From contig OZ220706.1 in assembly GCA_965116695.1 (NCBI GenBank), forward strand, positions 770,415-834,414: DNA of 64,000 nt. The letters run 5' to 3'. This stretch comes from Acidobacteriota bacterium (lineage in GTDB: Bacteria > Acidobacteriota > UBA6911 > RPQK01 > JAJDTT01). The notes beneath the pieces were generated by a model. It was given only the letters and a program-made list of their open reading frames with translations. It did no database searches and was not told where the DNA came from. Positions 1 to 32,914 of this stretch are shown piece by piece. Numbering within the stretch: the first letter of the stretch is position 1; the number at the start of each line of letters is the position of its first letter. The position numbers were made by a program, and so were the translations under genes.

Positions 1-1175
1 AGCTGAACGAGCTGCATGGCAAGCCCTCCGGCGACGGAATCCGCACCTATCAGGGTTGTCACTGGAGCTTCAAGAAATACGGGAAATCGGGGATCCCCGT
101 GAGCGAGCTCTTTCCTCACATCGCCACCTGCGTGGACGAACTGGCCATCGTTCGCTCCATGGTCTCCAACTTCCCGCTGCACCCGCGCGGCAACATCCTG
201 TTCCACACCGGCCGCAACGTCGGGGGTTACCCGAGTCTGGGATCCTGGATCACCTACGCTCTGGGGAGCGAGAACAAGAACCTGCCCGGGTACGTCCTTC
301 TCCACCCGGAAGCCACGTCGATCCCGCCGGGAGGGTTGGAGAACTTCTCCAACGGCTTCCTCCCCGCAACCCACCAGGCGTTGCCCGTGAAGGCGGAGGG
401 GACACCCATCGAAAACCTGGTCCCGGCCGACAAGAGTGCCATCCAGAACACCAAGTTGTCGGCGCTGCTGGACCAGGATCGGCAGTTTCTGGCCGACGCC
501 GGCAGAAACGACGCCATCGAGTCGGCCATCCGAAACTACGAAATGGCGTACCGGATGCAGTCCCTGGTTCCGGACGTGCTGGACCTGTCCCGCGAGACGG
601 AGGCCACCAAGAGGCTCTACGGGCTGGATACCTCCAACAAGGACCAGCGAAACTATGCCCTGCAATGCCTCCGGGCGCGGCGCCTCATCGAGTCGGGCGT
701 CCGTTTCGTGGAGGTGACTCCGCCGGTCCTGTTCGGCGCCACCAACGGCACCTGGGACCAGCACTCCAACTTGAAGAAAGGACATGAGGGGAACGCCCTG
801 GTGGCGGATCAGTCGGTGGCCGCCCTGATCAAAGACCTCAAGTCCAGGGGAATGTTGGACGAGACGCTGGTCATCTGGGGCACCGAATTCGGCCGCACGG
901 TGGACACCGGAACCAACGGAGACGGGCGCGACCACCTGGAGACGGCCTTCACCATCTGGATGGCGGGAGGCGGGGTCAAGGGCGGGACCGTGTATGGCCA
1001 AACCGACGACATCGGCAAGACGGTGGTGGAAAACAAGACCACCGTCCATGACCTGCACGCCACCATCCTGCACTTGCTGGGGCTGGACCACGAACGCCTG
1101 GTCTACCGTTTCGGGGGCCGCGACGAGAGTCTGACCGACGTCCACGGCCGCGTCGTCCACGATATTCTGGCCTGA
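1..1175 (+). CDS. DUF1501 family protein (sulfatase-like fold), 5'-partial; reading frame open to window start
   Basis: Frame 3 is open from nt 3, with no upstream stop. The C-terminal GGGVKGG motif and the RDH/DGRDHL region are typical of DUF1501 (Planctomycetes/Verrucomicrobia/Acidobacteria). TGA stop at 1173-1175. Confidence 0.7.
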   Translation, partial: LNELHGKPSGDGIRTYQGCHWSFKKYGKSGIPVSELFPHIATCVDELAIVRSMVSNFPLHPRGNILFHTGRNVGGYPSLGSWITYALGSENKNLPGYVLLHPEATSIPPGGLENFSNGFLPATHQALPVKAEGTPIENLVPADKSAIQNTKLSALLDQDRQFLADAGRNDAIESAIRNYEMAYRMQSLVPDVLDLSRETEATKRLYGLDTSNKDQRNYALQCLRARRLIESGVRFVEVTPPVLFGATNGTWDQHSNLKKGHEGNALVADQSVAALIKDLKSRGMLDETLVIWGTEFGRTVDTGTNGDGRDHLETAFTIWMAGGGVKGGTVYGQTDDIGKTVVENKTTVHDLHATILHLLGLDHERLVYRFGGRDESLTDVHGRVVHDILA

Positions 1176-1214
1176 AATCGGGGCTGGCCGGTCGGCCGTC
1201 ATCCAACGTCACAC

Positions 1215-2153
1215 ATGCCCCGTCACCGCCCCCTGCTGGCCGACAACATCCTGGAACTGATCGGCAACACGCCGCTGGTTCGGATTCAGCGCCTGACCCG
1301 CTCCGGCTCGGCCGAGCTCCTGTTGAAGCTGGAGTCCCTGAACCCCTCCTTCAGCGTCAAGGACCGGATCGCCTACGCCATGCTGAAGCAGGCCCAGGAC
1401 AAAGGCAGGATTCAACCGGGAAAGACCGTCATCGTCGAACCCACCAGCGGCAACACCGGGATCGGCCTGGCCATGGCCGCGGCCGTCATGGGGTACCGGT
1501 TGATCCTGACCATGCCCGACACCATGTCCATGGAACGCAGGCGGGTCCTTCAGGCCATGGGCGCCGAACTGGTCCTGACCCCCGAGGTCCGAGGGATGAC
1601 CGCCGCCATCGACAAGGCGGAAGAACTGGTGAGCCGGCTTCCCGACGCCTACATGCCGCAACAGTTCAACAACCCGGCCAATCCCCGGGTTCACCGCCGC
1701 ACGACCGCCCAGGAGATTCTGGAGGCGACGGACGGGAGGTTGGATGCGTTCGTTGCCGGCGTCGGAACGGGGGGCACCATCACGGGAGTGGGCGAGGTCC
1801 TGAAACAGGAATTGGGAGACGTGCTGATCGTCGCCGTCGAGCCGGCGGACTCCCCCGTGCTGGCGGGAGGAGAACCGGGTCCCCACGAGATCCAGGGAAT
1901 CGGCGCGGGATTCGTCCCGTCGGTCCTGAATCGCGACGTCATCGACGAGATCATCCACGTCGACTTCGAGGACGCCCGGATCGTCACCCGGGACCTGGCC
2001 CGCAAGGAAGGGATCTTCGCGGGCATCTCATCCGGCTCCAACTGCTGGGCCGGGCTCCAGATCGCCCGAAGGCTGGGAAAAGGCGCCCGCGTCGTCGCCA
2101 TGGTCTGCGACCTGGGAGAACGCTACCTGAGCCACCCCGTGTATGCCGAGTAG
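1215..2153 (+). CDS. cysK: Cysteine synthase A (O-acetylserine sulfhydrylase), PLP-dependent
   Basis: 312 aa. PLP-lysine motif SVKDR, glycine-rich TSGNTG loop, and full-length similarity to CysK/CysM family. Confidence 0.9.
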   Translation: MPRHRPLLADNILELIGNTPLVRIQRLTRSGSAELLLKLESLNPSFSVKDRIAYAMLKQAQDKGRIQPGKTVIVEPTSGNTGIGLAMAAAVMGYRLILTMPDTMSMERRRVLQAMGAELVLTPEVRGMTAAIDKAEELVSRLPDAYMPQQFNNPANPRVHRRTTAQEILEATDGRLDAFVAGVGTGGTITGVGEVLKQELGDVLIVAVEPADSPVLAGGEPGPHEIQGIGAGFVPSVLNRDVIDEIIHVDFEDARIVTRDLARKEGIFAGISSGSNCWAGLQIARRLGKGARVVAMVCDLGERYLSHPVYAE

Positions 2154-2228
2154 TCGTTATTCCCCAAGATCCTCCGCGCGAGTAGGCAACACAACGAAAC
2201 CTGACCTGCCCCATTCCAGAAGAAACCG

Positions 2229-5126
2229 GTGAAGACAGGCCTGCCGGATCGGTTCACTGTAGAGAGTTCGTGGTTCCATCGGGTTTTCTTTTCGGGATAT
2301 TCGCGCCTGACCGTCGTGGATGGGGCCCTTCGTTTACACAATTCCCGGACGCGCAAGGGAGTCGAGATCAACCTCGCCCACATTGATCATATTGCGAAAG
2401 TTTCGGGCTGGTTTGGCCGTTGCCGACTCAGGATTCGCTCGAATGCCAGAGACAAATTTTCGATTGGAGGGTTGGATGCGATTTCCGCAGACCGGGTAGT
2501 CAAAGCCGTTCAATTCGTAGCAGCTCAACGGGCTTCGGAACTGGCCCCGAGATTGTTGGAATTCGACCAGCGAATTCAGGCAAATTTGCGTGGCCGGGAA
2601 TATTTTCGTTGCTCTTCCGCAGATGCGCTTCATGCACAAATCGAAACCTTGGTGCAGGAAGGAAACCGGGAACTCGTCCGCCTCCACTTGCCGATACCAG
2701 CAATTCACGCCTTGGTTCGTCTCCGTGAATTTAGGCGTCGAGATCGATTGGAAACGGCTCGCGAGCGCGGGAACTCGAAGTTTGTCAGGGCGCAGGCAGG
2801 CGCTGTTCGGACCGCGGCCTCCGGAGTATTGGAGCACAAACTGACGGACGAACAGGCACACGCGATTGCCGCGGACGAGGATGTTACTCTCGTATTGGCC
2901 GGCGCCGGAACCGGAAAGACTGCGGTAATCGCCGGAAAAATCGCCTATCTCGTCCGCCACCAAGAAATCGATCCCAAGGAAATCCTCGTATTGGCCTTCA
3001 ACCGGAAAGCCGCCGCCGAGATCCGGGACCGCCTGCCAAGTGATCTCCAAGGTGCATGCGTCAGCACGTTTCATGCCTTCGGGATGCGCATTCTGGGGGA
3101 GGCATCAGGCAGGAAGCCGCACGTCTCGATTCTGGCCACCGACGGCGCGAAACTGGCTCAGACCATAGACGGGATTCTTAAGGATTTGCTGACGTCGAAG
3201 CAGCACGGAGATCAGGTGACGGAACTCCTGACCCTGCATAGAAACCCCTACAGATCCCCGTTCGATTTCAAGACAGCTAATGACTATTTCGAGTATGTCC
3301 GCGTTTGTGAGCATCGAACCTTAAGCGGAGACTTGGTCAATAGTCACGAAGAGGTCCAGATTGCCAACTTCCTCTCCATGAATGACATCAAGTTCCAGTA
3401 TGAAAGACCGTACCCGGTAAACACGGCCGACAAACGGCACCGGCGATACATGCCCGATTTCTACCTTCCCGACTACAAGATCTACATCGAACACTTCGCG
3501 CTCAACGAGGAAGGTGACGCTCCGCCTTTCTTCCGCAACTATCAGGACAGTGTCGAATGGAAGCGCAATATTCACAGGCGCTATGGCACCAGGTTGATTG
3601 AGACCTATAGTTGGCAGGCCCGCCGTGGAATTCTACTCCGGGAACTCAAGAAACTTCTTGAACACAACGGTGTAGATTTCCGCCCGGTTTCCATCGACCG
3701 CCTGCTTGACCAGCTCAGATCGATCCTGGAGTCATGGCTGTCCAGATTGATTCTCTCCTTTCTCAAGCACGTCAAAACGAGCATTCTGTCAGCGGATGAC
3801 CTGATCCGCCGCGCAATGAAATCCTCCGACAAGTTTCGGAGTTTAGCTTTCCTGAAAGTATTCGAAGCCGTTCGGGTGCGTTATGAGAAGAGACTCACCA
3901 AAGAAGGCGCCGTCGACTTCGAAGACCTGATCAACGAGGCCGCCCGGCAAATTCGCGATCTTCGCTCCTTTGCGCAGTATCGCTATATCCTCGTCGACGA
4001 GTTTCAAGACATCTCCACCAGCCGAATGGCGCTGCTGACAGCCCTCAATAAACCCGAAACCGCTTACTTTCTGGTCGGTGACGATTGGCAATCAATCTAC
4101 CGTTTTGCAGGCAGCGACGTGGGCCTGGTTCGTGGCTGTGGAGAGTACCTTGGCCACGTCCGTGAACATTGTCTGAGCAGGACCTTCAGATATGGCAGTC
4201 GCGTGGCCGATCCCACGTCGGAATTCGTGCAGCGGAACCCCGAACAAACCCAGAGAAGCCTTCGTGCCAATAGCGATGAACTCGATATGGGTATCACGGT
4301 GGTTGCATCCAAGGAACCGTCTCAGGGTGTCGAGCGCGCACTCGATGACATCCTGGAACAGGTACGAACTCGGGACCAAGGTCGCAGTCCGGGACACGGC
4401 AGGAATGATTCGTCCGTACTGGCACTCGGTCGTTACAGAAGCAGCGTGAATGCCATAAGAGAAGTTGCCAAGTCCAGACGCATGAGCGTCGACTTCAGCA
4501 CGGTCCACAGCGCGAAAGGGCGCGAAGCCGATTTTGCTCTCGTGCTCGATCTTAAGGACGACAAGATGGGTTTTCCTTCACAAATCGACGACGATCCTTT
4601 ACTCAATCTTGCATTGCCCCCGATGCGAGGGCATCCCTTCCCCCATGCGGAAGAACGCCGCTTGTTTTACGTTGCGGCAACCCGGGCCAAGCGAGCCGTC
4701 TACTTGATTGCTGATCAGATCGATACTTCAAGTTTCGTTCGGGAACTGGTCGAGGACTACGAGGGTATTCGTCGAATTGGTAATCTGGCCCGGTACTCAG
4801 CACCAGACTGTCCTCGCTGTGGGGGGTATCTCGTCGAATCAAGGACTGGCAAGACTCTTCGTTGTGTCAACCATCCGATTTGCAAAAATCAGGCGCCACG
4901 GTGCGAGATCTGTAAACAAGGATATTCCCTATCCGACGGACAAAGAGCCAAGTGCTCCAACCAACATTGCGAATCCTCGCCAAGGGCGTGTCCCAGTTGT
5001 AAATTCGGGATTCTCGTCTTGCGAAGTGGCCCATATGGACAATTCCTGGGATGTAGCGCGTACTGGAATGAACCCCCATGTACATATAAAGAAAGGCTGC
5101 CACCGAATCGTTTTTCTGGAAGGTGA
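2229..5126 (+). CDS. UvrD/Rep-family SF1 helicase (HelD/helicase IV-like) with embedded PD-(D/E)xK / Vsr-like endonuclease-like module and C-terminal tandem C4 zinc ribbons
   Basis: 965 aa, GTG start. Walker A LAGAGTGKT, motif II VDEFQD, motif VI-like VHSAKGREADF. Internal segment YMPDFYLPDYKIYIEHF resembles a restriction-endonuclease-like fold. C-terminal CPRCGG...C...C and CPSC...C clusters resemble topoisomerase-type zinc ribbons. Local GC (~52%) is clearly below flanking DNA. Confidence 0.8.
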   Translation: MKTGLPDRFTVESSWFHRVFFSGYSRLTVVDGALRLHNSRTRKGVEINLAHIDHIAKVSGWFGRCRLRIRSNARDKFSIGGLDAISADRVVKAVQFVAAQRASELAPRLLEFDQRIQANLRGREYFRCSSADALHAQIETLVQEGNRELVRLHLPIPAIHALVRLREFRRRDRLETARERGNSKFVRAQAGAVRTAASGVLEHKLTDEQAHAIAADEDVTLVLAGAGTGKTAVIAGKIAYLVRHQEIDPKEILVLAFNRKAAAEIRDRLPSDLQGACVSTFHAFGMRILGEASGRKPHVSILATDGAKLAQTIDGILKDLLTSKQHGDQVTELLTLHRNPYRSPFDFKTANDYFEYVRVCEHRTLSGDLVNSHEEVQIANFLSMNDIKFQYERPYPVNTADKRHRRYMPDFYLPDYKIYIEHFALNEEGDAPPFFRNYQDSVEWKRNIHRRYGTRLIETYSWQARRGILLRELKKLLEHNGVDFRPVSIDRLLDQLRSILESWLSRLILSFLKHVKTSILSADDLIRRAMKSSDKFRSLAFLKVFEAVRVRYEKRLTKEGAVDFEDLINEAARQIRDLRSFAQYRYILVDEFQDISTSRMALLTALNKPETAYFLVGDDWQSIYRFAGSDVGLVRGCGEYLGHVREHCLSRTFRYGSRVADPTSEFVQRNPEQTQRSLRANSDELDMGITVVASKEPSQGVERALDDILEQVRTRDQGRSPGHGRNDSSVLALGRYRSSVNAIREVAKSRRMSVDFSTVHSAKGREADFALVLDLKDDKMGFPSQIDDDPLLNLALPPMRGHPFPHAEERRLFYVAATRAKRAVYLIADQIDTSSFVRELVEDYEGIRRIGNLARYSAPDCPRCGGYLVESRTGKTLRCVNHPICKNQAPRCEICKQGYSLSDGQRAKCSNQHCESSPRACPSCKFGILVLRSGPYGQFLGCSAYWNEPPCTYKERLPPNRFSGR

Positions 5127-5179
5127 TCGAATCAGGCCTGCACTGACACGGTTGCCGCACGACCATTACCGCGATTAGA

Positions 5180-6540
5180 TCAATTGCGATTCTCTGCTTC
5201 GCGAGTCTCCAACCTGGACAGGACCCGCTTCCGAACCCAGGCCGGGTCCCACCACTCGATGGGGTTCACCTGGGTTCCATGCAGAACCATGGTGAAGTGC
5301 AGGTGATCGCCACCCGCCAACCCGGTCTGACCGGTCCGGCCCAGGGATTGCCCCTTCCGAACCTCATCTCCCACTCCCACGTCGAAACGGCTCAGGTGAG
5401 CATACAGCGACTGCAGTCCCAGACCATGGTCCACGACCACGGTGTTGCCGTAGATTCCCAGGTAGTCGGCAAAGATGACGACGCCGTCGTTGGAGCACTC
5501 CACCGGGGCCATAGCCAGGGAGGCCAGATCGAAGCCCAGGTGGGTCTGCTCGTCCACCTTCTTCCCCCCGTAGAAGTAGGAGCGGAAATCCGCGAAGGAC
5601 GATTCGACCTGCGAGTTGGTCAACTGTAGAAACTCTTCGGTCCAAAGAGGGACGGCGGCGGTCTGGGAAGCCATCTCTGCAATCTGCCGGTTGTTGGCCC
5701 GGCGCAACGATCCATTCACCTCCAGAAAGGTCTCCAAGAGATCGGAGGTTTCCCGGACCTGCTCGCTGCGCTCCAGGATGGCCGGCAGGACCCGCTCCAT
5801 GAAGCGGTCCGAAATATTAAGGTTTCGTTCTCGGAAACGCCCCGGAAACACCTTCTTCCAAAAGTTCTCCCGGCCTCGGTTTCCGGCTGGATCCTGGGCC
5901 CAGACCGTCATGGCGGTGTCTCTGTCCTGGTCGTGCCCCAGAGCGAAAAGACAGATGTAGACGCCTTCTTCCCGGGAGGGAGCGGGATATCCGGCGTAGA
6001 TCCGGTCTCCCACCTGGATTCCGCTGGAGTCGACCGGTTCGGACACCCGGTAGCGGACGGCGGCGGATCCGCCCTGCCGGATGTAGTGCTGATTGGAGAG
6101 AACCTCGATTCGAGGAGGCGTCCGGTCCAGACGGAAGTCCTGCTCCTCCACCGTTTCCCGTGACCAGAGTCCCAGACTCGCGTGGTCCTCCACCTGCATC
6201 TCCAGCGTGAATGGACCTTCCTTCACGTCTTCACGCGGCGCCACATCCGAAAGACGGACCGCAAGACGCCGCTCGAGAGTCCCGTCCGACCAGAGGAATC
6301 CCGCCTCGTCGAAACTCTCTTCGTGCACCACGAGCTCTCTTCCCTGCTGGCGGAGCCGCAGCCGCAGGGACCTGAGCCCCCGGCCCTGGTCTCTGATCTC
6401 GACCTGGATTTCCGTCTTGGGTCCCACGATTCGGGGCGGATCGATCCAATGAACTTCGGGAGGCGACGAGTCCCAAGTGGCGACGGCCCAACCGGCCGCA
6501 ACAGCCACCAGCAGAACCAAGATCAACGCCAACGGTTTCA
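5180..6540 (-). CDS. M23 family metallopeptidase (LytM domain) with N-terminal signal/TM anchor
   Basis: C-terminal HxxxD...GxTGxxxGxHLHF (LHF-type) M23 signature. Start trimmed to internal Met (MKPLALILVLLVAV hydrophobic N-terminus); the longer ORF to 6607 is also possible. Confidence 0.8.
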
Positions 6541-24309: not shown

Positions 24310-25038
24310 TCACCGTTTCCAAAAGTCCTCGAATCCGAAGGTCGGCCGCCAGCCAAAGACCCGTTTGACCTTCTCATTGGAGAACTGGCCGTGAGGAAAG
24401 TCGGCAGAGACGAAGTAGGCTTCGTAGCGCGAGGGCAATTGCTCCAATGGAACCTCCAGGGCCAATGGAAACAGAGCCGCCGCATCCTGCCAAGTGACGG
24501 TGAACGGAACGAACGTGGGTTCGTCGTCCGGGCGCGGCCGAGTGTCCCGGAAGTGGTAGAAGAGGAAGGAGGTGACGTAGAGATCGTGATTGCGAGTGAA
24601 GATCCGGCAGACCTCCTCGGCCAGCCCCTTGGTCAGGGCATACAGATGAGTTCCCGGCCGGGGCGTGACATCCGGATGCATGGCGAAGTCATAGGGTTCA
24701 CAGGTGGCGGGTCCCGTGACGGCATAGAAGGGACCGGTCTGGATGAACCGTTGGATCCCGTGCCTGCAGGCCGCCGTCAACGCATTGCAGGCGCCTCGGG
24801 TGTTGACGTCGAAAGCCAGTCGCCGGTCATGCCGCAACACGGACAGGTTGATGATGGTGTCCATCCCCTCCGCGGCGTCCACCACCTGCTCCAAGTCGGC
24901 GACGTCGACCCGCCGGTACTCGTGAGGCCCCTCGGCGGATACCTTGACGTCGGTCAGCCGCAGCTCGTGCCGGCCCTCGAGCGCCCGGACGACGTGAGGT
25001 CCCAGGTATCCGGCAGCGCCCAGAATCAGGACCTTCAA
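24310..25038 (-). CDS. NAD-dependent epimerase/dehydratase family protein
   Basis: Proposed TTG start (LKVLILGAAGYLG Rossmann motif), with GGAGG 5 nt upstream. It overlaps the TGA stop of the upstream gene as TTGA, suggesting translational coupling. The ORF-track start at 25227 is an unlikely 5' extension. Confidence 0.65.
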   Translation of the reverse strand: MKVLILGAAGYLGPHVVRALEGRHELRLTDVKVSAEGPHEYRRVDVADLEQVVDAAEGMDTIINLSVLRHDRRLAFDVNTRGACNALTAACRHGIQRFIQTGPFYAVTGPATCEPYDFAMHPDVTPRPGTHLYALTKGLAEEVCRIFTRNHDLYVTSFLFYHFRDTRPRPDDEPTFVPFTVTWQDAAALFPLALEVPLEQLPSRYEAYFVSADFPHGQFSNEKVKRVFGWRPTFGFEDFWKR

Positions 25039-25709
25039 GCCGGCCTCCAGGTCGATTCGAATCCCAGGATCCGTTGTGCCCGTTCCGTACCGTATCGCTG
25101 TCCGGGCAGTCCGGACTGGATGTGGAACACCGAATACGCGGGCAGCTCGGCCGTCAAGGACCGTCCGACTGCTTCGACAGCGTCCCGGGCGGTGACCCCG
25201 TCGGCACAGGATTGCTCCCTGCTCCACAGGATCGACCCCAGCCTGAGACAGATGGTCTGGAGTTTTCCCTCTCTCGCGTATTCACGACATACGATCTCTC
25301 CCAGGCGGTAGGCGAGGGTCGGCGGTTCCGCGTCCGGCCAGGGCAACCATCGCTCGGTGACCCGGAGACCGGCAGGATACCGGTCCATGACACCGAGGGA
25401 ACTCAATTGAACCACCCGGGGAACACCGGCCTCCCACGCCGCCCGGAGCAGGTTGTACAGACAGCGCGTCTGTCGATCCAGTCGAACGGAAGCATCCTCG
25501 GAAGGGTCGGTCCACCCGGTCCAGATGATGGCGTCCATTCCCTCGACCAACAGCCGGGTTTCGGAGTCGTGATTCAATTCGCACGGAACGAAAGCGTGAC
25601 GGCTCCCGACCGGCAGAGTGTCGGTGAGAACGACCCGGTGCCGCCCGGCCAGAGCCTGGGCCAGATGTTGGACCAGCCGATTCCTGGCGGTTGTGAGCAG
25701 CAGCTTCAT
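25035..25709 (-). CDS. Atypical NAD-dependent epimerase/dehydratase-like protein (degenerate Rossmann motif)
   Basis: Start at the internal ATG (MKLLLTTARNRLV...). The first gene of an epimerase-epimerase-SDR minus-strand operon. Confidence 0.55.
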   Translation of the reverse strand: MKLLLTTARNRLVQHLAQALAGRHRVVLTDTLPVGSRHAFVPCELNHDSETRLLVEGMDAIIWTGWTDPSEDASVRLDRQTRCLYNLLRAAWEAGVPRVVQLSSLGVMDRYPAGLRVTERWLPWPDAEPPTLAYRLGEIVCREYAREGKLQTICLRLGSILWSREQSCADGVTARDAVEAVGRSLTAELPAYSVFHIQSGLPGQRYGTERAQRILGFESTWRPA

Positions 25710-25867
25710 AGGTTGATCCGGCCGCCGACTCGAGACTGCCCCGCATCGGCTCGAATCGAGCGGCGCCGCCATCGACGTCGCGGAATGCAAAATTACAGGG
25801 GACTTACATAGATTAACCCGATCTTACGTGGTCAGGAGTATCACAAATCGGGAGGACTTAAGCAAAA

Positions 25868-26794
25868 TCAATTCGGAACGCTCCAATTCCCGAATGCCAA
25901 GTAAGTCGCAGCCGACGTTCGACGACGGAAGCGAGATAAATTTCGGACTACGCAAGAGGGCCTGAGACAGGTTCTCTGGTTAATGATCTTGCCCATCATC
26001 GGATTGATCGTCGAGAAATTGAAGCCATCGAGACTCGACGGAGAGATCGAATTGTCGAGGCTGAACGCCAGCGACCTGGCCGGACGATCCCGCACCCACA
26101 AGCAGATGATCATTGGCTGAAAACAGCTGACTCTGGTGGTAGTCTTTCGGATAGGCCTTGAATTGCGGGGGCATCCAACATTCTTCTGATGATCAGATGC
26201 CCTGATTTTAAGCGCTTCGGTGACAGCTCCGTATTCCGACAGGCTCCTAGTCGAGAAATTCATCGATTTTTCTCGCCAACTATCCATTTTATCGGCCAAA
26301 TCGTCGGCAATCTTGTCGGACTCGTACCACGCTTCAAATATGAAATCCGGCCCTTCCCAATCTGCGCGATTGCCTTCCAAACCACAATATACATAGGACC
26401 CTCTGATCCGTGACGTGCCTATATTCTGCTTGTCACATATCTGTTGGATTTCAATGGGTTTCACGTTCTCAAACCCGCTGACCGTAATATTCTCGCCGTC
26501 CCAGTTGCGGTCAAGACGGACACCTTCCCAACCTGTTACACCACCACACTGCCAAGAGCGTTTCCTTATCCGTACCGCGTGTGGTTGATTTTGTGACGTC
26601 ACAAAATCCACTGTCCACTCTCGGTTGCAGAACCGCTGCCTAAGATGTTCGTCAACACGTCTAAGAATTCTCTTGACCGCACTATTCCTGATTTTCAGTG
26701 CTGCCTTTTCGACGAGGAGTGCCAGCTTCACGTACTTTTTGTCTCGAAGAATGAAATCTCTTGTCGTGCGAACCGCGTCATCATCGTTTGTCAT
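25868..26794 (-). CDS. Hypothetical protein (no recognisable family) in AT-rich islet
   Basis: Start proposed at the internal ATG (MTNDDDAV...), with GGAG 9 nt upstream; this removes the overlap with the upstream nuclease gene. Local GC is ~45-48%. Confidence 0.45.
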   Translation of the reverse strand: MTNDDDAVRTTRDFILRDKKYVKLALLVEKAALKIRNSAVKRILRRVDEHLRQRFCNREWTVDFVTSQNQPHAVRIRKRSWQCGGVTGWEGVRLDRNWDGENITVSGFENVKPIEIQQICDKQNIGTSRIRGSYVYCGLEGNRADWEGPDFIFEAWYESDKIADDLADKMDSWREKSMNFSTRSLSEYGAVTEALKIRASDHQKNVGCPRNSRPIRKTTTRVSCFQPMIICLWVRDRPARSLAFSLDNSISPSSLDGFNFSTINPMMGKIINQRTCLRPSCVVRNLSRFRRRTSAATYLAFGNWSVPN

Positions 26795-26862
26795 GACCAA
26801 ATCTCCTAGGTGTCGGACACGTCGTTTGCCCGGAATTCGAATTCCCGCCTGATGAACTTTAG

Positions 26863-27468
26863 TTAATCTTTCAAAAACCAACGGACGACTTCGGCCTCAC
26901 ATTTCCTCCTGCATTCTTCAATCCAGTGCTCGACTGACGGAATCCTGTCGTTGCCCCAGCGGTAAGGAACTGTCAGGCAGCAATCTTGTGCTTCACGATC
27001 GAGGTTCGGCCACTCGGTTGGGTGTCTTCCATCATTGCTAAAGTACAGCATGCGTCCTATTCCACGATTTTTTAAGTCTCTCAGATAGAACTCAATCTGC
27101 CGATCCTGATCATTGGCCCATGGCTTGTTCTCGATCCCGATCCAGAGATCGTCGGGCATCTCCAGCACAATATCGATCTTCCCTGGCGCATTTTCCCTGT
27201 ACTCTTGCGTCTTAAATTCACGATGCACCTCGCATTTGCGAAGATTGTGATTCGAGAGACTACTAATTTCCCTCGAAAACCGATCCGTTTTCTTCAACAT
27301 ATCCAGGAACAATCGAAGAAAACCGTCGCCCTGCCCATGGCTCCCCGACGGACAGAGAAGATCAACAAAAATGCGGGATAGAGCGTTCTCTACGGGCTTG
27401 AAGTAGGAAAAAATAGAAAACTGGGTTGCAGCGATTCGGTCCAGTTCCTCCCTTGCACACTTGGCCAT
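26863..27468 (-). CDS. PD-(D/E)xK nuclease superfamily protein
   Basis: 201 aa. Core GKIDIVLEMPDDLWIGIENK carries the D...(D/E)xK catalytic-like triad. Within the AT-rich islet. Confidence 0.55.
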   Translation of the reverse strand: MAKCAREELDRIAATQFSIFSYFKPVENALSRIFVDLLCPSGSHGQGDGFLRLFLDMLKKTDRFSREISSLSNHNLRKCEVHREFKTQEYRENAPGKIDIVLEMPDDLWIGIENKPWANDQDRQIEFYLRDLKNRGIGRMLYFSNDGRHPTEWPNLDREAQDCCLTVPYRWGNDRIPSVEHWIEECRRKCEAEVVRWFLKD

Positions 27469-27765
27469 ATCGACGGCGGCACCAAGACCGGAAAAAATCC
27501 TGTCAGTTCAGCATCGAACTCACAATTTTGATCGTAGGTGTCAATCATAAGAAAAAATTCCGACTATTCGTTCGTCTGCTACTCAACCTTCTCGGTAAGC
27601 GAAACAACCTACCCTATCGCATAGACTTCACTAATTCCGCATGGTTGTTGAAGTGAAAGTTAATTAAGGCATAACAGAAAACATATGCCCTCTCCAGATC
27701 CGTGCAACTCCTGCGAAAGGGCGGTGAATCGGATGCCGCGCCCGGATGGAACGGGCCGCTCCCCC

Positions 27766-28755
27766 TCACCGGGGCCGCGCCGTTTCGGACGGCGGATCGG
27801 TGTCGATTCTGGGATACAGCCAGGAGTGGGTCAGCCCCGGGTGACGCTTGCCGTACCGGGAAGGCACATCCTGGGTCCAGTTGCTGGGGATGGTCAGGCA
27901 GAAGAGCAACAGGCAGGCGAAGACAACCTTCTGGGCGGCCAGAGGCCTTTTCGGGGCCGGCGCCCGGGGAGCGGGCGCCGGATCGTTCCGGAGACGTCCC
28001 TGCCTCCGCAGGCGGGAGCGATAGAGCAGGATCGCACCCAGCAGGGCCATCAGGATGTTCAGGGTCTGACCTGTCCCGATGGGAAGGCGGTGGGTCGGAT
28101 AGTCGCGGAAGATATCGATGACGAGGCGGGGAAGGGCGTACCAGAAGACGAAGCGGGCCGCGACGGCCCCGGGGGTCCGGTTGGTCCGCCTGAAGCGGAG
28201 CAGGTAACCCATCAACAGCAGATTCTTGGCCCCGTCGTAGAGCACGACCGGATGGCGAAAACCCTCCGCGTCGGGGAACTTCACGCCCCACCAGGCATCG
28301 GTGACGCTGCCGACGATCTGGCCGTCGATGAAGTTCCCGATCCGCGCGGTACCCAGGAGAAGCGCCGCCGGAATCGCCAGCGTGTCGGCAAGGGGCAGGA
28401 ATGGTTTCCGGTACAGGTACGTAAATAGCAGCAGGCCGAGTCCGGCGCCCAACATGACGCCGTGGGTCGCCATGCCCCCAAGCCAGAAGGCCGGGATCAA
28501 CCCTGGATTCCGGCTGTAGAAGGGCCATTCGTCGAAAGCGATCTCTACGGCGCGGCCTCCGGCCAGAACTCCGATGACGATGAACAGGCTCAGGCTCCAG
28601 ACCTCGCGGTCCGACAACCCCAACTGCCGCCTGGATCTCCGGGCCGAGAGGTGAAGATGCAGGAAACCGAGAGCGAAGCCGAGTCCGTACCACCAGAGGT
28701 GCACTCCGGCGACGTCGAAGAGGATCGGATCGATCTGGTGGGTGTAGGGTCCCAT
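27766..28755 (-). CDS. lgt: Prolipoprotein diacylglyceryl transferase
   Basis: 329 aa polytopic membrane protein. Lgt signature-like GARIGNFIDGQ and HPVVLYDG blocks; N-terminus WWYGLGFALGF. Confidence 0.85.
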   Translation of the reverse strand: MGPYTHQIDPILFDVAGVHLWWYGLGFALGFLHLHLSARRSRRQLGLSDREVWSLSLFIVIGVLAGGRAVEIAFDEWPFYSRNPGLIPAFWLGGMATHGVMLGAGLGLLLFTYLYRKPFLPLADTLAIPAALLLGTARIGNFIDGQIVGSVTDAWWGVKFPDAEGFRHPVVLYDGAKNLLLMGYLLRFRRTNRTPGAVAARFVFWYALPRLVIDIFRDYPTHRLPIGTGQTLNILMALLGAILLYRSRLRRQGRLRNDPAPAPRAPAPKRPLAAQKVVFACLLLFCLTIPSNWTQDVPSRYGKRHPGLTHSWLYPRIDTDPPSETARPR

Positions 28756-32826: not shown

Positions 32827-32914
32827 GCCGGAGTGGTGGAATTGGCAGACGCGCTGCGTTCAGGACGCAGTGGGCTAGACGCCCGTGGGAGTTCGAGTCT
32901 CCCCTCCGGCACCA
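32827..32914 (+). tRNA. tRNA-Leu (anticodon CAG), type II with long variable arm, CCA encoded
   Basis: Acceptor stem GCCGGAG/CTCCGGC. D-arm GTGGTGGAATTGGCAGAC. Anticodon stem-loop CTGCG-TTCAGGA-CGCAG. Long variable arm TGGGCTAGACGCCCG. T-arm GGGAGTTCGAGTCTCCC. Discriminator A plus CCA. Confidence 0.85.

Follow-up and report, generated by a model that had tools for sequence, protein, structure and literature searches.

The stretch of DNA analysed here (the window) comprises 64,000 nucleotides of contig OZ220706.1 from an Acidobacteriota bacterium. Between its lgt gene and a gene for an NAD-dependent epimerase-family protein lies an islet of low guanine-plus-cytosine (GC) content, which is probably what is left of a candidate defence module that was acquired horizontally, has recently decayed and is most likely non-functional. 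The islet carries a nuclease gene and a small partner gene, whose intact relatives form the centre of a four-gene cassette in other genomes. A preliminary description, made from the letters of the window, had presented the islet as a nuclease paired with an unrecognisable protein, and had suggested in addition that it might be a remnant. The picture of an intact pair gives way to one in which two frameshifts and one nonsense codon are spread across both genes. The suggestion of a remnant agrees with our results, in that both genes are disabled and the outer genes of the cassette are absent. Comparison loci are designated below with an L and comparison proteins with a P.

The GC dip at 25805-27718 is the deepest and longest of the window. 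Its mean GC content is 0.489 (range 0.463-0.510), against 0.622 +/- 0.037 outside (z = -3.6; 400-nucleotide windows), which confirms the AT-rich islet of approximately 2 kb that had been claimed. The two co-oriented minus-strand open reading frames (ORFs) reported for it, 26863-27468 (ORF1) and 25868-26794 (ORF2), are present at those coordinates. To place the islet in a comparative context, six related Acidobacteriota species were picked by an Lgt scan of species-representative genomes (Lgt 84-94% identical). The gene order amt-lgt-epimerase-epimerase-SDR-GH88 is kept in all six, and the interval between lgt and the epimerase gene measures 165-260 bp in these species versus 2,056 bp in the window genome. 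Alignment of the junctions with L011 and L012 reveals that ancestral-type sequence reaches 27718-27725 on the lgt side and resumes from 25804 downwards on the epimerase side, with approximately 26 nucleotides of the ancestral spacer gone and replaced by the insert. The islet is a lineage-specific insertion of horizontally acquired foreign DNA, as had been supposed: the same interval lacks it in six of six related species while synteny is otherwise kept. There is next to no chance that the islet is a low-GC housekeeping trait which the lgt-epimerase region has kept from its ancestors. Nothing but its co-orientation with the flanking genes speaks for such an origin, which is refuted by the empty site in every related species, and the family of the encoded proteins is sporadic in its distribution and occurs in defence islands.

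ORF1 matches the PF14281 (PDDEXK_4) family with an E-value of 3.5e-18 and 66.6 bits (cutoff 22.3), such that residues 19-190 align with profile positions 3-167 of 183. The PD-(D/E)XK signature IDIVLE...IGIENK is present, and D99, E113 and K115 are invariant in the family alignment. With a match above the cutoff and the motif in place, the earlier assignment of ORF1 to the PD-(D/E)XK superfamily is upheld. However, the extent given for this gene is not, because the 201-amino-acid ORF is a truncated internal piece of a gene of approximately 247 codons. Homologues of ORF1 are 240-290 amino acids long, and the true start is the ATG at 27548, with coding from MIDTYDQNCEFDAELTGFF. When the intact protein P0002 is aligned with the window by tblastn, its residues 1-23 fall in frame -2 (27548-27480), whereas residues 19-249 fall in frame -1 (27495-26809) and run through an internal stop. 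The supposedly long, AT-rich and non-coding flank on the 5' side of ORF1 was thus misjudged, in that it holds the true N-terminal coding part of the nuclease gene together with a conserved leader of 170 bp.

Two lesions account for the shortened nuclease frame. The first is a single-nucleotide deletion at or after a run of T residues (27492-27497), where the window reads GGATTTTTT-CCGG and intact copies read GGATTTTTT(G/T)CCGG. At this position, GGATTTTTTGCCGG is present in L003, L005 and L007, GGATTTTTTTCCGG is present in L008, and the window has a gap. The second is a nonsense substitution, where five of five aligned homologues carry GATTTACT versus GATTAACT in the window. This premature stop drops the conserved last 19 residues, a segment in which L, L, I and F columns are almost invariant. 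Behind the stop, the frame continues through LKFIRREFEFRANDVSDT to the natural TAG, and tblastn through the lesion reads 'FLKD*LKFIRREFEFR'.

The partner had been described as a protein of 309 amino acids with no assignable motif, and neither part of this description survives. Homology of ORF2 is limited to its first ~173 codons (26794-26279), a span covered by residues 1-173 of P0123 in tblastn, and all intact homologues are 183-196 amino acids long. A single-nucleotide deletion (ATGGATA-GTTGG) constitutes the third lesion. Because this deletion lies 11 codons before the natural stop, the 309-codon ORF, which was called mechanically, consists of a genuine protein of approximately 183 amino acids followed by ~125 codons of out-of-frame read-through. 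When the deletion is repaired, the frame reads LARKIDEFLD*, which compares with the family C-terminus LA(K/R)KIDDVL. ORF2 matches no family in Pfam, NCBIfam or PADLOC. A profile built for the small protein matched only 31 representatives among 1.84 billion (1.84e9) proteins, and a metagenome scan with the small-protein alignment found nothing.

The identity of the partner becomes apparent through PDC-S26, a computational single-gene candidate in PADLOC of approximately 350-450 amino acids (PDLC04969-04983). ORF1 matches the N-terminal half of PDC-S26 (profile positions ~20-200 of 389-413) with an E-value of 1.5e-25, and ORF2 has no direct match. However, four of the 31 relatives of the small protein are fusions of 404-460 amino acids, in which PF14281 is N-terminal and the small domain is C-terminal. 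The small-protein profile matches residues 239-424 of P0152 and 229-428 of P0157 (library-wide E-values of 2.3e-5 and 3.4e-4, respectively). These fusions match PDC-S26 profiles end to end; for example, residues 27-426 of P0157 correspond to positions 27-406 of a 413-position profile, and P0152 and P0153 are likewise matched at full length. Even when isolated, the C-terminal halves of P0152 and P0157 match the C-terminal part of the PDC-S26 profile (E-values of 7.2e-5 and 1.4e-6). In P0131, close relatives of the two window genes are naturally joined, and the nuclease tail ...VRWFLKDLLKYIRMEF runs directly into the N-terminus of the partner. A direct profile comparison between the small protein and a distant plasmid-borne PDC-S26-like member of 414 amino acids was negative, and the link rests on these bridging sequences. 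Because natural fusions bridge the small protein and the C-terminal half of PDC-S26, the nuclease and its partner are a split, two-gene form of PDC-S26, with the partner corresponding to its detached C-terminal domain.

The preliminary description had also considered a toxin-antitoxin-like pair. Neither ORF matches a toxin-antitoxin family in Pfam, NCBIfam or PADLOC, and the two proteins are naturally fused elsewhere, which speaks against that proposal. Because of these fusions (P0131, P0152 and P0157), the two proteins are better viewed as putative domains of one enzyme than as a toxin and its antidote. These findings argue that the partner is an accessory domain rather than an antitoxin-like antagonist.

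Structure prediction models the nuclease domain with confidence (pLDDT, predicted local distance difference test, 85-97), and the C-terminal domain is not modelled confidently. All fold neighbours of the nuclease model are PD-(D/E)XK proteins, namely NucS/EndoMS, Card1, Can2, McrC, Shedu SduA and LmuA, and none is significant (E >= 0.06). Sequence searches of the PDB with the nuclease and with the small protein returned no relatives, and none were found among viral contigs. Two plasmids carry other members of this nuclease group. A Sphingomonas plasmid (L108) holds a full single-gene PF14281-type copy of 414 amino acids. In the Acinetobacter plasmid pRYU24 (L107, 4064-4774), a distant PF14281-type nuclease is cut by IS66 and lies beside Doc toxin and macro-domain genes.

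Intact relatives of the window genes occur in a larger context. Window positions 27718-26246 align at 80% identity (blastn) with 9074-10553 of L003 and 7074-8559 of L005, which are metagenomic Acidobacteriota contigs. These loci carry a cassette of four genes, encoding a double-AAA ATPase, the PF14281 nuclease, the small protein, and a regulator with helix-turn-helix (HTH), WYL and WCX domains, such that the ATPase lies upstream and the regulator downstream of the nuclease-small pair; intact examples lie at 6975-11589 of L003 and 4975-9595 of L005. The four-gene cassette was found in L003/4, L005/6, L008/9, L091, L093 and L096, and a version with a fused nuclease is present in L094 in the order AAA-WYL-fused. 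The ATPase (680-702 amino acids) contains two classical AAA modules, and its closest solved relatives are VCP, Cdc48 and Afg2. The cassettes in L003 and L005/6 are surrounded by genes for type I restriction-modification, GmrSD-SLFN, Fic and PLD-SNF2 proteins, resolvases, a group II intron reverse transcriptase, and transposases. The earlier view that the islet resembles a small defence island is therefore supported in part. The match to PDC-S26 and the company kept by the intact relatives (type I restriction-modification, GmrSD, Fic, PLD-SNF2, resolvase and transposase genes) favour it, but the islet holds only a partial cassette.

The boundaries of the shared segment are sharp. Compared with L003, homology to the cassette starts 24 nucleotides past the stop codon of the AAA gene and ends exactly at the stop of the small gene. 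No remnant of the ATPase was detected by tblastn with five ATPase queries in the whole 64-kb window (E <= 0.01) or within the islet (E = 10), and the same thresholds revealed no WYL remnant in the window or the islet. The three features that characterize the cassette, which are an adjacent ATPase gene, an adjacent WYL/WCX gene, and intact nuclease and small-protein frames, are all lacking in the islet. By homology, the window copy corresponds to only the middle two genes of the larger AAA-nuclease-small-WYL cassette. Degraded cassettes are also present elsewhere, where the nuclease gene of L007 (1582-2387) and the ATPase gene of L010 (2560-3294; pieces of 137 and 106 amino acids) are fragmented, and cassette loss seems recurrent.

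Another island in the same neighbourhood deserves description. In the related species L016 (OZ246889.1), positions 1-6094 form an island at the point where synteny with the window breaks (window position ~32668), approximately 160 bp from the window tRNA-Leu gene with anticodon CAG (32827-32914). Its genes encode the same double-AAA ATPase (82% identity with that of L003), a divergent WYL protein, proteins of 326 and 186 amino acids, and an rve transposase. Inspection by eye of the 186-amino-acid cargo protein (4203-4763) reveals a D...E.E-like pattern (LYDVTW...VAECEW) reminiscent of a restriction-endonuclease fold. As indicated by the L016 island, a tRNA-linked integration hotspot probably lies ~5 kb from the islet site.

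We considered whether a complete AAA-nuclease-small-WYL island once occupied the same site and shrank to the present islet by later loss of its outer genes. Degraded cassettes are common, as L007 and L010 illustrate, and in L016 the AAA and WYL genes lie in the same neighbourhood, at a distance of only ~5 kb. However, the homology that starts just past the AAA stop and ends at the small-gene stop directly adjoins ancestral spacer at its left end. Fragments of AAA or WYL genes were not detected at the thresholds given above, and the L016 island occupies a different site and carries different cargo. For these reasons, we judge later loss of the outer genes at this site to be quite unlikely, and we retain the interpretation that a partial cassette was inserted.

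The islet has none of the hallmarks of a mobile element that we sought, which were an integrase or transposase gene, terminal repeats, a target-site duplication, and a tRNA gene at the border. The earlier statement that no integrase or tRNA gene lies in or beside the islet is accurate, as the islet contains no integrase or transposase gene and the closest tRNA gene is the tRNA-Leu gene 5 kb away. Short direct repeats at the islet ends, which had been suggested as a check, were not found, nor was a target-site duplication. An inverted repeat of 22 nucleotides with 77% identity (25833-25854 and 27692-27713) was rejected as a pair of transposon ends, as it is at chance level, being matched in 491 of 1000 shuffles and in 130 of 190 natural pairs from the window. 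One of its arms falls within the region homologous to the cassette leader. On the simplest reading, the islet entered by illegitimate, non-site-specific recombination.

These findings suggest a sequence of events and a model for the intact system. A DNA segment corresponding to 25805-27718 would have landed between the lgt and epimerase genes by illegitimate recombination, and its recognisable part is the nuclease and its ~183-amino-acid partner, the putative effector of a candidate anti-phage cassette. WYL regulators such as BrxR and CapW, and nucleases coupled to AAA+ proteins, are established and provide the basis for the cassette model. From domain content and from known WYL regulators, we infer that the WYL protein of an intact cassette controls transcription. 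The double-AAA ATPase might serve as a sensor, motor or unfoldase, and the nuclease with its accessory subunit would be the effector that cuts nucleic acid. The window genome has neither the ATPase nor the WYL gene, which form the chassis of the cassette, and each of its two effector genes carries disabling lesions. The module is therefore most likely non-functional and in early decay. Direct evidence supports the insertion, the homology, the lesions and the cassette context, and from these the defence role, this division of labour and the loss of function are inferred.

Several observations weigh against a dead remnant of a defence module. One concerns the defence role itself, in that the searchable literature contains no experimental anti-phage activity for PDC-S26 or for the cassette, but only census mentions. 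Others concern the lesions, which might be errors of a low-coverage long-read metagenome assembly that mask an intact module in the living organism. Lesion 1 falls within or beside a T6/T7 homopolymer, a type of site prone to long-read assembly error, and contig names point to low coverage (6x for L001). Furthermore, L002, which carries all three lesions, is identical in sequence to the window and perhaps derives from the same reads, and may not be independent. In contrast, neither the substitution of lesion 2 nor the deletion of lesion 3, which affects a run of two bases, is a typical homopolymer error. The same three lesions are present in L001, which comes from another assembly or sample and is distinguished elsewhere by single-nucleotide polymorphisms. 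In addition, approximately 21 kb of flanking genes align at full length and in a single frame with their L012 orthologues, with no frame breaks. Because these flanking genes are unbroken and because L001 and L002 share the lesions, the lesions are not general assembly noise, and assembly error is a very improbable explanation for the state of the islet.

The remaining contrary observations would fit a pair that still works as a stand-alone, two-gene defence or addiction module, in which translation of the nuclease begins at the internal ATG (27468) and the partner remains functional despite its altered C-terminus. All lesions lie near gene termini. In a leave-one-out test, none of 60 otherwise-invariant family columns is changed in the nuclease; its core, in which the catalytic D, E and K are intact, is fully conserved and shows no sign of relaxed constraint. 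The 201-amino-acid ORF has an internal ATG and the whole Pfam domain, and could conceivably provide residual activity. Moreover, L092 carries the pair without AAA or WYL genes, beside Fic and MazE-PIN genes, and the absence of partner genes by itself does not prove loss of function. Despite these points, there are three independent disruptive lesions within 1.4 kb, compared with none in the ~21 kb of flanking genes. The 19 residues lost from the nuclease are in part nearly invariant, and it is through this segment that the natural fusion leads into the partner domain. The partner lacks the end of its C-terminal helix and gains ~125 amino acids of junk, and it carries five genuine changes at otherwise-invariant positions, which places it at the top of the family range beside P0125 from another degraded locus. 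The lack of any toxin-antitoxin family match also disfavours an addiction module. A working stand-alone pair is therefore unlikely, and a decayed remnant remains our preferred interpretation. Because the nuclease has no changes in 60 invariant columns and the small protein has five such changes, the decay is recent, most likely at an early stage, and more visible in the partner gene.

Base composition offers a clue to how such modules may move. Within the cassettes, the nuclease and small-protein genes have a GC content of 0.44-0.53 and the fused gene 0.47, versus 0.61-0.63 for the ATPase gene and 0.64-0.67 for the WYL gene. The nuclease module lies 10-17 GC points under the adjacent ATPase and WYL genes in every host (L003, L005, L008, L010, L091, L093 and L094), and the GC content of the ATPase and WYL genes is equal to or above that of the host flanks. 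Low GC content is therefore intrinsic to the effector module across hosts. Effector exchange is hinted at because the module is low in GC in every host and because the L016 chassis bears other cargo. As a tentative proposal, which we consider possible but more doubtful than probable, the Cdc48-like double-AAA ATPase, a split or fused PDC-S26, and the WYL protein could constitute an undescribed multi-component anti-phage system, in which a GC-rich ATPase/WYL chassis carries an exchangeable low-GC effector and the window islet is a displaced module. If true, this would provide direct evidence of cargo moving as a unit with precise boundaries.

The window islet itself is ordinary, and it would be better annotated as two pseudogenes than as a 201-amino-acid nuclease and a 308-amino-acid hypothetical protein. 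Three aspects are new. The rare partner family, with its 31 representatives, is tied to the C-terminal half of PDC-S26, which indicates that PDC-S26 exists in split and fused forms. In Acidobacteriota, the nuclease is not a single-gene system but has a double-AAA ATPase and a WYL regulator on its two sides, an arrangement that hints at an undescribed defence system of larger size. The third aspect is the compositional pattern of the cassettes described above.

The coordinates of the features are collected in Table 1.

Table 1. Coordinates of the islet, its genes and lesions, and the flanking host genes within the window.
Feature	Position	Strand	Basis or remark
Whole inserted segment	25805..27718	-	~1,914 bp; ancestral-type sequence (L011, L012) aligns outside both ends
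Cassette-derived core (leader, nuclease gene, small gene)	26246..27718	-	~80% DNA identity with intact cassettes; GC 0.479
Conserved non-coding leader	27549..27718	-	Equals AAA-nuclease intergenic region of intact cassettes; aligns with L003 and L005, partly with L007 and L008
PDDEXK_4 (PF14281) nuclease pseudogene, full extent	26806..27548	-	True ATG 27548-27546; natural stop TAG 26808-26806
ORF1 as called, 201 amino acids, internal fragment with whole catalytic core	26863..27468	-	PF14281 over residues 19-190
Lesion 1, 1-nucleotide deletion at or after T-run, frameshift	27491..27497	-	DNA alignment and tblastn frame change; first ~19 codons disconnected
Lesion 2, premature TAA (TTA Leu to TAA)	26863..26865	-	DNA alignment with five homologues
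Small partner gene, genuine extent	26247..26794	-	ATG 26794; natural stop TAG 26249-26247 aligns with homologues' stop
Lesion 3, 1-nucleotide deletion in small gene	26280..26281	-	DNA alignment with six intact copies; last 11 codons shifted, stop abolished
Out-of-frame read-through part of the 309-amino-acid ORF	25868..26246	-	Covered by no homologue; tblastn and tblastx against neighbour genes and all loci negative
Tail, origin without match	25805..26245	.	441 bp; GC 0.508; co-inserted with core
lgt, intact flanking host gene	27766..28755	-	PF01790; full-length, 84-94% identity to orthologues
First NAD-dependent epimerase-family gene, flanking host	25035..25709	-	224 amino acids; orthologue-supported ATG 25709; public gene call in L001

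The tail yielded no DNA or protein match in blastn, tblastn and tblastx comparisons with approximately 100 fetched loci and the rest of the window. An origin of the tail from a neighbour gene, be it WYL, ATPase, MazE/PIN, Fic or another, was rejected, since tblastn, tblastx and blastn were all negative. Its ORFs are short, for example one of 64 amino acids on the minus strand (25980-26174) and a plus-strand frame of ~45-70 amino acids with a hydrophobic stretch. No Rfam family was matched in the islet, tail included. Promoter and terminator scans of the islet were at background level, and the leader contains no promoter-like site above chance. On the epimerase side, the mechanically called ORF starts with TTG at 25790 (251 amino acids), whereas orthologues and the public call favour the ATG at 25709 (224 amino acids), and therefore ~95 bp of native upstream sequence is kept between this gene and the insert. 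Elsewhere in the window, a plus-strand ORF of 965 amino acids (2229-5126) lies where GC content dips a second time, though less deeply (~0.51-0.53 at 3.1-4.9 kb). Judged by eye, this ORF resembles a helicase of the UvrD/Rep type whose C-terminus bears Cys-rich zinc-ribbon repeats, and it could be foreign or defence-related. More low-GC patches occur at ~12.3-13.6 kb and at ~43.9 kb.

The intact cassette and the window copy share features with several known systems. An AAA+ ATPase and a PD-(D/E)XK nuclease occur together in the intact cassette, as in McrBC-type and other AAA+-coupled PD-(D/E)XK restriction systems, and McrC is among the weak fold neighbours noted above, with E-values (E >= 0.06) that are not significant. 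However, the cassette ATPase is of the classical Cdc48/VCP-like kind with two AAA modules rather than a McrB-type GTPase, and the window contains neither an ATPase nor a specificity domain. The second AAA domain of the cassette ATPase also matches the IetA models of IetAS (Gao_Iet) with an E-value of 1e-23, but the IetS protease is lacking and the window has no ATPase. The cassette ATPase was rejected as IetA or TRIP13, because the similarity is that of the generic AAA domain alone (NCBIfam IteA score of 81 versus a cutoff of 510).

WYL regulators of the BrxR/CapW type adjoin diverse defence systems (bioRxiv 10.1101/2021.12.19.473356). The intact cassettes resemble such loci in that an HTH-WYL-WCX protein adjoins the nuclease pair, and this protein presumably regulates the cassette; the window differs in having no WYL gene.

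The closest resemblances are those of the nuclease and its partner. Steczkiewicz et al. (2012, PMC3424549) list the function of PF14281 as unknown, and a PDB sequence search found no solved structure in the family. The window nuclease matches this family over the whole domain and keeps the D...ExK core, but both of its native termini are missing. With PDC-S26, the window pair shares the N-terminal PF14281 domain, the C-terminal half by way of the fusions, and relatives in defence islands. It differs in that its halves are separate genes that carry three lesions, in place of the single full-length protein by which PDC-S26 is recognised. In Acidobacteriota, the copies of this nuclease sit with a double-AAA ATPase and a WYL protein, an arrangement that extends beyond the single-gene definition of PDC-S26.

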